The notes under the pieces: model-generated
Databases searched by the model: none
What the model saw: the letters and a program-made list of their open reading frames with translations, nothing else
What the model was told of the DNA's origin: nothing
In this document: positions 28,241 to 31,458 of the stretch, one piece after another
Numbering within the stretch: the first letter of the stretch is position 1
How the letters are laid out: the number at the start of each line of letters is the position of its first letter
Source: an uncultured Gammaproteobacteria bacterium
GTDB taxonomy: Bacteria; Pseudomonadota; Gammaproteobacteria; CAWCPV01
Assembly: GCA_963797555.1 (NCBI GenBank)
Contig: CAWCPV010000011.1
Coordinates: forward strand, 1 to 64,000
DNA: 64,000 nucleotides
Direction: 5' to 3'
Program-made: the position numbers and the translations under genes

Positions 28241-28609
28241 ATGGAGGTTTCCATCCTTTTCGGCAGATTCCTGGTGCGTCAAGGTCTACTCACCGAGCGC
28301 GATCTGGCAGAGTCGGTGAACGTTCAGTCGGAGTTGAACCACAACTATCCAGCGACCGTCCTCGGTGACGAAATGATCACCCTCGATGAGTTCAGGAAAT
28401 GTCTGGCGTATCAGCGCCAGAACGGGGTGACCTTCCGGCAGGCCCTGTTGGCCCTGAATGTAGCCAATGGCGACAGCATCAGAGCCATGGACGAAGCGAT
28501 CCGTAAGAGCCGCATCAAGCTCGGCGAGATCCTCGTCAAGAGGGGGCACCTGACGGAAGACGATCTCGAGAAGGCGCTCCAGCGGTTCGGCGAAAACGCT
28601 CACCGCTGA
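28241..28609 (+). CDS. Small protein with MshEN-like (c-di-GMP-binding type) motifs
   Basis: LFGRFLVRQGLLTERDLAESVNVQ and KLGEILVKRGHLTEDDLEKAL resemble RLGxxLxxxGxxxxxxLxxxLxxQ. Confidence 0.7.
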   Translation: MEVSILFGRFLVRQGLLTERDLAESVNVQSELNHNYPATVLGDEMITLDEFRKCLAYQRQNGVTFRQALLALNVANGDSIRAMDEAIRKSRIKLGEILVKRGHLTEDDLEKALQRFGENAHR

Positions 28610-28806
28610 GACCCGGCCCAAAGTGGCTGGAGGGTGCACCCCGTGGCAGCCGCACTACCTGCCGTGCCCCGCCTTCGGGGGAACAGGTGGTATTACCCAT
28701 GGCGTTATACACATCTCCCCGTAGCTAGGGCTGCTGCCCCTCTGGACACAGCCCCCGGAAGCTGATTCAATGCCCCCATCGTTCACCAGGTGACGAGGGG
28801 GAGCAG

Positions 28807-29680
28807 ATGGAGAAGGGGTTGCCGAGGTGGTTGGGTGGGCGCGTGCTGAGCGCGGGGGAGCTTGAGAGCATACGGCGGGAGGCTCGGCTGGCGGAGCCCC
28901 GAGTGCGAGCCGAGGTGGCGCGGCGGGTGTGTCGGGTGCTGGGGTGGACCGATGCAGCCGGTAGGCCCAAGCTGATGAGCTGTCGAGTCGGGCTGCTGCG
29001 GCTGCATCGGGCAGGCTGGATTCGAGCTGCCGGCGCCGCGCAACGGTAACGGCAATGGGAAGGGGCTGTCGCGCGAGCCGCAAGATTGGCCCGCTGAGGT
29101 ACCGGTGGTGGGCGCAGTGCGGGATTTGCAGGGTCTGCACTTGGCGCCGGTTGCTGACCCGGCGGACTCGGCGCTGTGGAATGGGCTCATCGACCGGTAC
29201 CATTATTTGGGCTACCGGCCGCTGCCCGGTGCCCAGCTGCGCTATCTGATTCGCTGGGACGCGGGTGTGGTGGGGGCCATGGGCTTCGGGGCCGCGGCCT
29301 GGAAGGTGGGCGTGCGCGACCGCTGGATTGGCTGGGATGCGCCAAGCCGTGCGCAGCACCTGGGGCAGGTGCTGAACCATGCGCGGTTTCTCATTCTGCC
29401 GTGGGTGCGGGTGGCGAACCTGGCCTCCAAGGTCCTCGGGCGGGCCGCGCGGCAGGTGCCGGGCGAGTTCGAAGAGCGCTACGGGGTACGCCCGGTGCTG
29501 CTGGAGACCTTTGTCGAGGCCGGCCGGTTCGCGGGCACCTGCTACCGGGCGGCCAACTGGCATCATCTGGGGCAGACCACCGGGCGGGGCAAGCTCGACC
29601 GTGAGGCGCTGCCCATCAAGGATGTCTATGTGTATCCGCTCGATGGCCGCTTTCGCCGGGCGCTCGGGGGAGCCGCATGA
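28807..29680 (+). CDS. DUF4338 (Druantia DruA-like) protein; +1 frameshift near 29023
   Basis: WNGLIDRYHYLGYRPLPGAQLRY, RDRWIGW, RFLILPWV, NLASKVL, LLETFVE, GTCYRAANW. Confidence 0.85.
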
Positions 29681-31011
29681 ATGCCCTGGCCGAGGAGCTG
29701 GCCGCCATCGACTTGGGTGATGCGCGCCTCAACCGCCGGGCGCGACGCACCCTGGAGAAGCTGGGAGCCCATCCCATGCAGAGCATTCCCACCGCCTGTG
29801 GCGGCTGGGCCGAGACCTTGGCGGCTTATCGGCTGTTCGACCATCCCCAGGTCACCGCCCAGGCGGTGCTCGAGCCCCATTACGCCTGCACCGAGCAGCG
29901 TATGCGCGAATACTCGGTGGTGCTGTGCATCCAAGACACCACGGAAGGGGACTATAGCGGCAAGAACGACATCGTCGGGCTGGGCCCGCTCAACTACGAG
30001 ACCCGCCGTGGATTGTACCTGCACCCCACCCTCGCCGTGACCCCCGAGCGGGTGCCCTTGGGGCTATTGGATTGATGGAGCTGGACCCGCGAGGCGGGCA
30101 GTCTGGGCAAGGAGCAGGGCCGCCGGCCCATCGAGGAAAAAGAGAGCCTGCGCTGGCTGGAGGGTTATCGACGCGTCTCGGAGCTCATCGAGTCCCTGCC
30201 CGAGACCCAGTTGGTCTATGTCGCCGACCGCGAGGCCGACATCTACGAGGTGCTCGCGGAACGCGCCGCCACGCAGCCCTGCGCCGAGTGGCTCATCCGC
30301 GCCGAGCGCGCCCGGCTCGCAAGCGCGCCGGTGCTGGCCGAGGCCGAATTCGACCTGCCCGCCACCGCTAGGCGTCCGGCGCGGCGCATCCACCAGCAAC
30401 TGCGCGTCGCACGCCTCACTTTCAAGGCCCCGCATCGCTCGGACCGCACCCTGGCGGACATCGAGGTGAGCGCCGTGCTGGCCCGCGAGGTGGACCCGCC
30501 CCAGGGCGAGGAGCCCATCGAGTGGCTGCTCCTCACCAGCCTCCCCGTCGAGACCGCCGAGCAGGCCCTGGAGAAGCTGCAGTGGTACCTCTGCCGGTGG
30601 CAAATCGAGGTGTTCTTCAAGATCCTCAAAAGCGGCTGCCGCATCGAGAAGCTGCAGCTCGAGACCCTCGAACGCCTGGAGCCCGCGCTCGCCTTCTACC
30701 TCATCATCGCCTGGCGGGTGCTCTACCTCACCCTGCTCGGGCGCGACTGCCCGCAGATGCCCTGCAACGTGGTGTTCGCCGAGGAGGAATGGCGCGCGGT
30801 GTATATCGTCACCAAGCGCCAGCCCCCGCCTGAGACACCCCCCTCGCTCGATGCGATGGTGCGTATGGTGGCGAGCTTCGGCGGCTTCCTCAATCGCAAG
30901 GGCGACGGCTTCCCGGGTCCGCAAAGCCTGTGGATCGGGCTGCAGCGAACCCGCGACTTCGTGCTCGCCATGGACGCACAACGGGCCTCACAGAGCCCGA
31001 GATGTGTATAA
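29677..31011 (+). pseudogene. IS4/IS50-group transposase with an in-frame TGA at 30073
   Basis: LGDARLNRR, IQDTTE, YVADREADIYE, YREK signature YLCRWQIEVFFKILK. Confidence 0.9.
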
Positions 31012-31184
31012 CGACATGGGTATTACCTCCACACCGACACACGGTCGGGATATCCTGACCGACGCTCGTGCAAGCTCGCCAGTCAGGAAATTGCCGCACG
31101 AGTTTCTTGCAGTGGCCCGTTGATCGATGGATGTCGGTCGGGCTTGCGTGCCCGATTTACAGGACTGGCGGAGTTCGGTATTCC

Positions 31185-31400
31185 GCCCGGCACCTGCACT
31201 TCACCCCCACCTCTTCGTCCTGGATGAATCGGGCCGAGCGGTTCTTCAGCGACCTGGGCGATTTTCTCGCCGAAGGCAGCCTAGCTCCGTCAATGCGCTC
31301 GCTGAGGCCATCGTCGCCTTCCTCGCTGAGCGCAAACGCCCACCCCAAGCGCTAGTATCTGGAACGCCAGGGGCGAGGACATCCTGCCCAAGATCGTTCC
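31185..31400 (+). mobile_element. IS630-family transposase C-terminal relic
   Basis: HLHFTPTSSSWMNRAERFFSDL...SVNALAEAIVAFLAE. Confidence 0.7.
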
Positions 31401-31458
31401 CCCGTGGTGGGCCTATAATGTGGCGACCATAGCGAGGCATGTATCACGGGCGGATGCG

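Follow-up and report, generated by a model that had tools for sequence, protein, structure and literature searches.

The locus at positions 28698 to 31018 of the 64,000-nucleotide stretch analyzed here (the window; contig CAWCPV010000011.1 of an uncultured Gammaproteobacteria bacterium) raises the question as to why an insertion sequence should carry, beside its transposase gene, a second gene encoding a DUF4338 protein, a domain that it shares with the Druantia protein DruA. An earlier note had proposed that this passenger might modify DNA, either to regulate transposition or to shield the element from restriction. We find that the insertion sequence itself is ordinary and that its copy in the window is dead, and that the point of interest is the pairing of a transposase with an accessory gene of this kind. 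The explanation as a whole, in which the element belongs to a known insertion sequence group and the DUF4338 protein is a dedicated partner of its transposase and possibly a modifier of DNA, strikes us as somewhat better than an even bet.

The insertion sequence and its sister copies

Direct reading of the window confirms the description of a fully delimited 2321-bp element (28698-31018). Its 19-bp terminal inverted repeats, IRL (28698-28716, forward strand; CATGGCGTTATACACATCT) and IRR (31000-31018, reverse strand; reverse complement CATGTCGTTATACACATCT), agree in 18 of their 19 bases, and their inner 12 nt are, we believe, those of the Tn5 mosaic end. Two identical copies of a 9-bp target-site duplication, GGTATTACC, flank the element at 28689-28697 on the left and 31019-31027 on the right. 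The longest inverted pair returned by a repeat search (32 nt, 91%) corresponds to the element termini, and extends into the target duplication, GGTATTACC being itself close to a palindrome.

Two genes on the forward strand, both pseudogenes in this copy, lie within the repeats. The upstream gene, orfA (28807-29680), encodes a DUF4338 (PF14236) protein of 290 aa in its intact form (P0001), and the downstream gene, orfB (29677-31011), encodes a Tn5-like DDE transposase of 444 aa in its intact form (P0002), with its TAA stop codon sitting within IRR. The stop codon of orfA and the start codon of orfB share the sequence ATGA (29677-29680), which puts orfB in frame -1 with respect to orfA, and through this overlap the two genes are evidently translationally coupled; the earlier claim of a DUF4338 gene inside the repeats and coupled to the transposase is upheld. 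Programmed -1 frameshifting to yield an OrfAB fusion was considered and is not claimed, as the ATGA/TGATG overlap alone accounts for the frame; no canonical slippery heptamer was seen at the orfA-orfB junction on reading the sequences of the window and the Tn5-type loci. A scan of 28600-31150 for sigma-70 promoters and terminators returned no sites of either kind, and two short frames to the right of the element (31068-31432), which by eye resemble an IS630-type C-terminus, have no Pfam match. A conserved run of four to five G residues is present ∼9-12 nt upstream of the orfA stop.

The OrfB protein matches the Pfam families Tnp_DNA_bind (PF14706, 73 bits), DDE_Tnp_1 (PF01609, 34.7 bits), and Dimer_Tnp_Tn5 (PF02281, 78 bits), scores 406.5 bits against NCBIfam NF033590 (transpos_IS4_3; cut-off 160), and aligns over residues 10-421 to the Tn5 transposase structures with E=1e-30. 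In this alignment the IQDTT, DREADI, and YLCRWQIEVFFKILK (with RWQIE) segments of OrfB correspond to IEDTT, DREADI, and YTHRWRIEEFHKAWK of Tn5, in which we take D97, D188, and E326 of Tn5 to lie, and the catalytic D, D, and E together with the Y-(2)-R-(3)-E-(6)-K signature are all found in OrfB. The element thus shares with IS50/Tn5 the same three transposase domains, the D, D, E motifs, the 19-bp repeats, and the 9-bp duplication, and its assignment to the IS50/Tn5-like group of the IS4 family, as made in the earlier note, is virtually certain. IS50 has one frame and encodes only a transposase and an inhibitor, whereas the present element exceeds it by ∼0.9 kb and carries upstream a separate gene that is coupled to that of the transposase (and in relatives is fused to the transposase N-terminus). 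Because this separate 290-aa orfA lies inside the inverted repeats in all six other copies in the genome, we regard the element as a variant of the IS50 group and not as IS50 itself.

These six copies, together with that in the window, make up seven full or near-full copies that are 99.6-100% identical and have different flanks, and their first and last bases are the same in all copies that reach the respective end; the boundaries at 28698 and 31018 are therefore those of the mobile unit. All six of the others (2311-2320 bp) have both open reading frames intact, with orfA inside the repeats, such that the undamaged unit of 2320 bp consists of the 19-bp repeats, orfA (290 aa), and orfB (444 aa). 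Among the four copies with both flanks readable, a perfect 9-bp duplication is seen in the window copy and in that on contig C9, which has a duplication of its own (GGTCATGCC); the copy on contig C6 has only a 7-bp flanking repeat, and that on contig C5 has none. The suspicion that the window copy is damaged by one frameshift and one TGA is substantiated by the alignment. A 1-bp insertion (T) at 29021 on the forward strand, which breaks the orfA frame, is absent from all six other aligned copies, and the in-frame TGA in orfB (30073-30075, forward strand) is replaced by a leucine codon, CTA in five copies and TTA in one. This TGA was thus formerly a leucine codon and not a tryptophan codon, and reading it as tryptophan or selenocysteine was rejected. 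The window copy is the only defective one among the seven, an inactivated representative of an active, multicopy, two-gene insertion sequence, the multicopy nature of which the earlier note had missed.

The fold of OrfA and its relation to Mom and DruA

Intact OrfA matches PF14236 (DUF4338/DruA) at 152.3 bits (cut-off 27) over residues 104-266. Searching by sequence alone turned up no useful solved relative of OrfA, and the DUF4338 profile had no match among PDB sequences. The AlphaFold2 model (pLDDT 93.3, pTM 0.86) confidently predicts a small N-terminal three-helix domain (∼95 aa) followed by a C-terminal GNAT acyltransferase domain, and DUF4338 has been independently named as a GNAT domain in the available part of one report (PMC10853773). 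When the model was compared with the PDB by Foldseek, 143 matches had E≤0.001, and those listed are overwhelmingly GNAT enzymes. The top match is Mom of phage Mu (8bv8_B; E=3.7e-6, TM 0.57 on the target), with generic GNATs from E=5e-5 onward, a lead for Mom of no more than roughly one order of magnitude in E-value. In the BFVD search, rank 6 is taken by Mom of Salmonella phage FSL SP-031, and many long 'endonuclease-like' phage proteins are also matched; an account available in part describes jumbo-phage Mom domains as fused to REase domains (PMC7824862). The model thus points to phage Mu Mom, its best match, as the nearest solved relative of the OrfA GNAT domain. The N-terminal domain taken alone (model pLDDT 82) has no fold match at E≤0.001; with E=0.45, the Fur-type winged helix Nur ranks first, and the others are scattered winged-helix, Myb-like, and ribosomal proteins. 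With no significant fold match for this domain, both a winged helix and DNA binding by OrfA are no more than conjecture.

Mu Mom transfers glycine from Gly-tRNA to N6 of adenine in double-stranded DNA, and no other tRNA-dependent enzyme that hypermodifies DNA is known to us. Alignment of the DUF4338 and Mom profiles with hhalign gave E=0.003 over 150 columns at a probability of 10.4%, and 2.2% when the DUF4338 profile was aligned to the single Mom sequence. In this statistically weak alignment, H132-Y133 of OrfA are paired with H58-Y59 of Mom, S207 with S124, E237 with D149, R240 with R151, and Y246 with Y159. Among 151 DUF4338 members, these positions are conserved to different extents (H132, 149/149; Y133, 107/149; S207, 143/148; D or E at the position of E237, 131/144; R240, 101/144; Y246, 130/142), as are E233 (145/145) and G255 (141/141). 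According to the available portion of PMC13219725, R111, S124, and R151 are essential in Mom, H58A, Y59A, and Y159A drastically lower its activity, and D149A greatly lowers it in earlier work cited there. OrfA thus has in common with Mom the GNAT fold, the H-Y pair, an N-x-x-S motif in the beta4-alpha3 loop, an acidic residue and then an Arg after beta5, a Y-x-A-x-N-[WF] motif in alpha4, and a final strand and helix.

There are also substantial differences. R111, which is conserved in Mom homologues and not across GNATs in the accessible text of 10.1101/861617, has no counterpart in DUF4338, the hhalign alignment having a 2-residue gap there between P198 and W199, and most of the HTH-like insertion of Mom (∼175-209), deletion of which abolishes activity, lies opposite gaps; DUF4338 has instead the extra N-terminal domain. 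The same source describes the Ser and Tyr common to Mom and DUF4338 as general CoA-contact residues of GNATs (10.1101/861617, in part), so these are equally compatible with an ordinary acetyl-CoA enzyme. Intact OrfA has no match to the Mom family PF25680, PF14236 being its sole Pfam match at E≤1; Mu Mom itself scores 253 bits against PF25680. Mom is moreover a late phage gene, and the OrfA gene is found inside insertion sequences. The resemblance to Mom put forward in the earlier note therefore stands as regards the GNAT fold, recovered with confidence by AlphaFold and Foldseek, the top PDB match, and the quoted motif, which aligns to the D149/R151/Y159 region; membership of the Mom family by sequence does not stand, there being no significant sequence relationship.

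The suggested link to Druantia holds for the common domain only. Type I DruA shares DUF4338 with OrfA, and PF14236 is now named after DruA, but the PADLOC DruA models match OrfA at just 20.8 and 16.4 bits over ∼50 residues, and OrfA does not qualify as a DruA orthologue. The proteins borne by insertion sequences are ∼290 aa long, as compared with PADLOC profile lengths of 407 and 675. No Druantia partner genes (DruB-DruE) are present between the inverted repeats, where the transposase gene is the sole neighbor, and we conclude from the gene content that the window element is evidently not a Druantia system.

Pairing of DUF4338 genes with transposase genes

A survey of DUF4338-transposase linkage across insertion sequence families, as called for in the earlier note, shows a breadth of pairing that the note itself had missed. 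The best 80 of 593 related loci in a collection of genome contigs come from many phyla, and a DDE transposase lies within 600 bp of the DUF4338 gene in 71 of these 80, several of which are from one genome, such that the loci are not independent. The 71 comprise 55 with an IS66-type transposase on the same strand (48 upstream, 7 downstream), 11 with a Tn5-like transposase (10 downstream, 1 upstream), and 5 with other DDE_Tnp_1 transposases. As the closest relatives of OrfA, these loci reveal little about remote members of the family, including true DruA. A few loci have other neighbors, namely a ResIII helicase (L064), an AAA_3 ATPase (L053), and a TPR protein (L050).

Gene coupling and gene fusion are both common. 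In 10 Tn5-type loci, DUF4338 and the transposase form one open frame in five and overlap by ATGA or TGATG in the other five. Among the top 150 representatives of clusters at 50% identity, at least 32 proteins are fusions (29 DUF4338-Tn5-like and 3 IS66-DUF4338), and all 10 that were tested against Pfam were confirmed. DUF4338 is N-terminal in fusions of the Tn5-like and ISAs1 types and C-terminal in those of the IS66 type; the ISAs1 type is represented by a Thiodictyon plasmid protein with the architecture DruA + DDE_Tnp_1_assoc + DDE_Tnp_1. At least four transposase types (Tn5-like, IS66, ISAs1, and other DDE_Tnp_1) are therefore linked to DUF4338, often by fusion, and the sequence clusters concerned number in the thousands and come from one archaeal bin and many phyla of bacteria. 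The family is patchy, being present in 21 of the 301 genomes of a phylum sample. On a quick IQ-TREE phylogeny, built after exclusion of two of the 80 loci for a stop or a match below 220 residues, DUF4338 proteins group by partner type, and the Tn5 label requires 3 changes as compared with a shuffled mean of 11.3, with none of 500 shuffles as low. These patterns indicate that DUF4338 is not a random passenger of transposases.

Coupled accessory genes are familiar from two-gene insertion sequences such as IS66 (TnpA/TnpB) and IS3 or IS1 (OrfA-OrfB), which likewise have a second gene inside the inverted repeats, tightly coupled, with split and fused forms coexisting. In contrast to those accessories, the OrfA described here has an enzyme fold (GNAT) and is not a DNA-binding OrfA, and the family serves at least four types of transposase; enzymatic accessories of simple insertion sequences are rare as far as we know. 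No paper in the literature collection that was searched links DUF4338 to transposons, and elements of this kind may already be catalogued in ISfinder, TnCentral, or the InterPro architecture tables. The same genome also contains a separate IS66-type element of 2690 bp with its own DUF4338 gene inside its inverted repeats. Six copies of it have a common frameshift in DUF4338 and about eight more have a 190-bp deletion inside the gene; since these broken copies are 99.5-99.96% alike, the IS66-type element has spread without an intact DUF4338 gene in cis.

A proposed role for OrfA

Given the conserved pairing, OrfA is probably a dedicated partner in transposition and not cargo. It would be produced together with the transposase, or as part of the same chain in the fused forms, and would therefore be expected to act where the transposase acts. 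We also think it fairly likely that OrfA is catalytically active as a GNAT, in the capacity of an acyl- or aminoacyl-transferase. The most plausible substrate would be DNA, either within or close to the element or its target, and a covalent mark placed there might adjust timing, immunity, or the recognition of ends, in the way that Dam methylation modulates IS10 and IS50; that DNA is in fact the substrate is a tentative and rather doubtful part of the model. DDE transposases of four or more types are coupled, or joined in one chain, to an enzyme domain of confidently predicted fold that is nearest to Mom. If the proposal is correct, tethering an acyltransferase to a transposase would add a new level at which transposition is controlled, and might furnish tools for the targeted modification of DNA or proteins.

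The proposal would likewise offer a concrete, testable hypothesis for DruA in type I Druantia, the role of which is left unexplained in the available parts of the literature on that system; the portion of a preprint on YprA/Druantia (10.1101/2025.09.15.676423) at hand contains no mention of 'GNAT', 'acetyltransferase', or 'transpos'. At its broadest, and here we think it improbable, DUF4338 proteins might constitute a large unrecognized class of acyl- or aminoacyl-transferases that act on nucleic acids, resemble Mom, and are carried by transposons. The transposase would bring them through fusion or co-translation to the ends or the target, where a covalent DNA mark would control transposition, for instance by licensing the ends, conferring target immunity, or setting the timing. 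On this view DruA would have been domesticated from the same class to mark DNA so that self can be told from non-self, in parallel to the methylase that type II Druantia presumably carries.

Several other roles have to be weighed against a transposition partner that marks DNA. OrfA could be a protein acyltransferase that sets transposition by acetylating, from acetyl-CoA, either the transposase or a host nucleoid protein assisting the transpososome, DNA not being a substrate. We consider this unlikely, even though the fold matches that follow Mom (RimI, RimL-type enzymes, SpeG, HP0935, and Naa60) are protein or small-molecule N-acetyltransferases, and the conserved Ser and Tyr are among the general CoA contacts of GNATs (10.1101/861617, in part). 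Fusion to the transposase would suit modification in cis, and the missing R111 and HTH-like insertion would suit a substrate other than DNA. Nonetheless, N-L-A-S in OrfA, like N-S-E-S in Mom, replaces the glycine-rich pyrophosphate loop that we take to be typical of CoA-using GNATs, and we know of no protein acetyltransferase with the H-Y pair and the acidic-plus-Arg pair that OrfA and Mom have in common. The top matches in both the PDB and BFVD fold libraries also lean toward Mom-like proteins.

A role outside transposition, with the insertion sequence as mere vehicle for a selfish or beneficial cargo gene, appears quite unlikely. Such cargo might be a Mom-like anti-restriction modifier that shields the carrier replicon once it has been transferred, or a DruA-like defense module, and Mom is indeed described as an anti-restriction enzyme (PMC13219725, available in part), the Pfam family bears the name of a defense protein, and a few loci have non-transposase neighbors. 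The spread of IS66-type copies with a broken DUF4338 is likewise what would be expected of a gene dispensable for movement. However, single-chain fusion to transposases, seen for 32 or more of the 150 cluster representatives, is unexpected for cargo, and the conserved ATGA/TGATG coupling, the grouping of DUF4338 by partner type, and the low scores of the PADLOC DruA models all argue against it. Least probable, and by our estimate very much so, is a noncatalytic accessory in which the GNAT fold, without any acyl transfer, is a scaffold that binds the transposase or a nucleic acid (DNA or RNA), for instance to recognize ends, to choose targets, or to inhibit as Tn5 Inh does. The departure of the family from Mom at R111 and at the insertion would be consistent with this; the conservation of H132, S207, E233, Y246, and G255 is nonetheless what an active site would show, though a surface for binding might be conserved as well.

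Copies of a two-gene Tn5-like insertion sequence

The insertion sequence in the window lies exactly where the earlier note placed it. Reading of the sequence together with a repeat search puts the left inverted repeat (IRL) at 28698-28716 and the right (IRR) at 31000-31018; the repeats are identical at 18 of 19 positions and both element ends are flanked by GGTATTACC. Its neighbors are a small ORF with no above-threshold Pfam match on one side and an OmpR-type response regulator gene on the other. When the host genome (5.35 Mb, 20 contigs) was searched by blast with the whole 2,321 bp, we found seven full or near-full copies with 99.6 to 100% identity and different flanks, as well as truncated and interrupted copies. 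The first and last bases are common to all seven in an alignment. Both flanks are readable in four copies; among these, a separate perfect 9-bp duplication (GGTCATGCC) borders the copy on contig C9, a 7-bp repeat flanks the one on C6, and no duplication is present around the one on C5. This two-gene Tn5-like element is active in this genome, and the window copy is a single dead copy of a live insertion sequence. Its damage had been recognized from the sequence alone, and both lesions are absent from the sister copies: the window copy is one base longer than the others, with an extra T at 29021 splitting orfA that no other copy in the seven-copy alignment has, and orfB has an in-frame TGA at 30073-30075 where the others have CTA (five copies) or TTA (one copy). 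Both orfA (290 aa) and orfB (444 aa) are intact in all six other copies.

OrfB carries the three Tn5 domains (Tnp_DNA_bind, DDE_Tnp_1, and Dimer_Tnp_Tn5), scores 406 bits against NCBIfam transpos_IS4_3, and aligns over residues 10-421 to Tn5 transposase structures (E=1e-30), with IQDTT, DREADI, and RWQIE facing the Tn5 catalytic motifs; its stop codon is inside IRR.

The perfect duplications of the window copy (28689-28697) and the C9 copy are both of the form GGT....CC. Tn5 prefers palindromic G-N-T...A-N-C targets, which these duplications recall, although no judgment can be based on just two sites. Two short overlapping frames immediately right of the element (31068-31432), which gave no match in a Pfam search, may encode the C-terminus of an IS630-type transposase, and the insertion sequence may therefore have landed beside an older IS remnant. 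Elsewhere, one copy is split at element position 1670/1671 (C17:60792-62460 and 63508-64159); roughly 1 kb of other DNA separates its two parts and is probably a nested insertion. The genome also has another family of Tn5-like transposases, which comprises at least six copies (for example C9:187689-188627, C14:292392-293330, and C18:2454-3392), matches orfB at about 65% DNA identity in two stretches that stop short of orfA, and may represent a classic one-gene relative.

DUF4338 genes and their transposase partners

The DUF4338 family is huge: 7,989 of 8,000 scored 90%-identity clusters, most of them from contigs of 1-3 kb, match it at E<=0.001, as do 7,813 50%-identity clusters. Among the top 150 representatives of the latter, 29 are single chains with DUF4338 ahead of a Tn5-like transposase, and three have DUF4338 after an IS66 transposase; Pfam confirmed the fusion architecture in all 10 proteins submitted. 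PF14236 occurs in 21 of 301 genomes sampled from the phylum. Assembled genome contigs yielded 593 stretches encoding relatives, and the best 80 come from Pseudomonadota, Acidobacteriota, Spirochaetota, Bacillota, Planctomycetota, Nitrospirota, Verrucomicrobiota, Actinomycetota, and Bacteroidota, with one Gracilibacteria bin and one ANME-2 archaeal bin.

The linkage seen in the window extends to several transposase types. By a tblastn panel, 71 of these best 80 loci have a DDE transposase no more than 600 bp from DUF4338, a tally of loci and not of independent events, since several share a genome. An IS66 transposase is upstream on the same strand in 48 and downstream in seven, a Tn5-like transposase is downstream in 10 and upstream in one, and five have another DDE_Tnp_1 protein; the nine lacking a transposase include six with a short flank. 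Non-transposase neighbors at three loci are a ResIII helicase, an AAA_3 ATPase, and a TPR protein. The 10 Tn5-type loci are divided equally between one continuous frame and an ATGA or TGATG overlap, and the gene pair is bracketed by inverted repeats at three loci (L019, L063, and L088). The pairing was not found in the literature searched, with curated IS databases outside that search.

In a quick maximum-likelihood tree of 78 loci and two DUF4338 proteins of the window's genome, DUF4338 groups by transposase partner type, with host phyla mixed inside clades. Tn5-linked members form two well-supported clades, one of split and one of fused genes, with one stray within an IS66-dominated clade. 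An ANME-2 archaeal bin (L034) and a SeepSRB2 deltaproteobacterial bin (L038), whose record names both begin with E20, have DUF4338 proteins that the tree does not separate (branch length 0), reflecting either transfer between the two organisms or binning cross-assignment. On a Thiodictyon plasmid (NZ_CP020371.1, 2926-4260), the product of a gene with the annotation 'ISAs1 family transposase' is a fusion of DruA, DDE_Tnp_1_assoc, and a partial DDE_Tnp_1, in which the DUF4338 GNAT domain occurs without the N-terminal domain. At L019 (981-3378) the inverted repeats are perfect over >40 nt; because a motif like the tip of the window's repeat (CATGTCGTTACACACA) is found some 24 nt inward of their outer end, the transposase may in fact bind at an internal end, or the element may sit inside another repeat.

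OrfA and the Mom enzyme

The intact OrfA from the C9 copy matches Pfam PF14236 (DUF4338, now named DruA) over residues 104-266 with 152 bits, so the DruA domain named in the earlier note is present, but PADLOC DruA models score only 20.8 and 16.4 bits. In its AlphaFold2 model (57-sequence alignment; pLDDT 93.3, pTM 0.86), a small N-terminal domain of helices is joined to an alpha/beta domain by a short linker, modeled with low confidence, near residue 85. The predicted fold is that of a GNAT, with phage Mu Mom (8bv8) the top Foldseek match in PDB (E=3.7e-6, target TM 0.57, 196 aligned columns) and generic GNAT acetyltransferases following from E=5e-5. Against BFVD, uncharacterised phage GNAT-like proteins come first, a named Mom is at rank 6, and below it come numerous long phage proteins labeled 'endonuclease-like'. 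PMC7824862 describes jumbo-phage Mom domains fused to restriction-endonuclease folds, and PMC10853773 independently terms DUF4338 a GNAT domain.

According to PMC13219725, Mom takes glycine from Gly-tRNA(Gly) and attaches it to N6 of adenine in dsDNA. Its essential residues are R111, S124, and R151; H58A, Y59A, Y159A, W48A, and W181A drastically reduce activity, D149A greatly reduces it (earlier work cited there), and an HTH-like insertion (about 175-209) is required. These residue numbers are GenBank numbering plus 10, per an earlier preprint (10.1101/861617). In hhalign, DUF4338 and a Mom profile of 31 sequences align over 150 columns with E=0.003 and a probability of only 10.4% (2.2% with a single Mom sequence). 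The register nonetheless appears telling: OrfA H132-Y133 faces H58-Y59, N204...S207 faces N121...S124, E237, R240, and Y246 face D149, R151, and Y159, and N250 and G255 likewise match. Among 151 family members the H (149/149), S (143/148), D/E (131/144), R (101/144), and Y (130/142) are conserved. In contrast, R111 is opposite a gap, DUF4338 lacks an equivalent for most of the HTH-like insertion, and a search of PDB sequences with the DUF4338 profile gave no match; DUF4338 is thus a GNAT with Mom as its nearest characterised relative, but lies outside the Mom family.

Possible role of OrfA

DUF4338 has repeatedly been fused to unrelated transposases, at one terminus or the other; its translational coupling is conserved, and it clusters by partner on the tree. 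These findings suggest that OrfA would be a partner working together with the transposase. OrfA could instead be cargo with a role in anti-restriction or defence, which we consider unlikely beside this pattern of association. The active-site-like conservation suggests that OrfA would be an enzyme, and a non-catalytic role seems improbable. From its Mom-like features, DNA is the most interesting candidate substrate. The Ser and Tyr shared with Mom are general CoA-contact residues of GNATs (10.1101/861617), and a protein substrate, although doubtful, is the alternative to which we give most weight. The earlier interpretation holds in part, namely for the insertion sequence, the GNAT assignment, and the likeness to Mom; a transposon-encoded epigenetic module and an evolutionary link to Druantia are hypothetical.

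A second element bears on whether DUF4338 is essential. A PF14236 scan of the same genome gave 45 matches, and those beyond the Tn5-type copies belong to a 2,690-bp IS66-type element (for example C13:111891-114580 and C3:703775-706461). It has inverted repeat GTAACCGTTCA and an 8-9-bp duplication, and its 540-aa transposase gene and DUF4338 gene are convergent. A 1-bp insertion common to six of seven full-length copies interrupts DUF4338, and these six retain the transposase; in the seventh, DUF4338 is intact but a 2-bp deletion truncates the transposase. About eight more lack 190 bp of DUF4338; no copy in this genome has both genes intact. All these copies are 99.5-99.96% alike, and the element therefore spread recently without an intact DUF4338 in cis, with DUF4338 either complemented in trans or dispensable. 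This spread is the strongest evidence in our analysis against an essential role for DUF4338.
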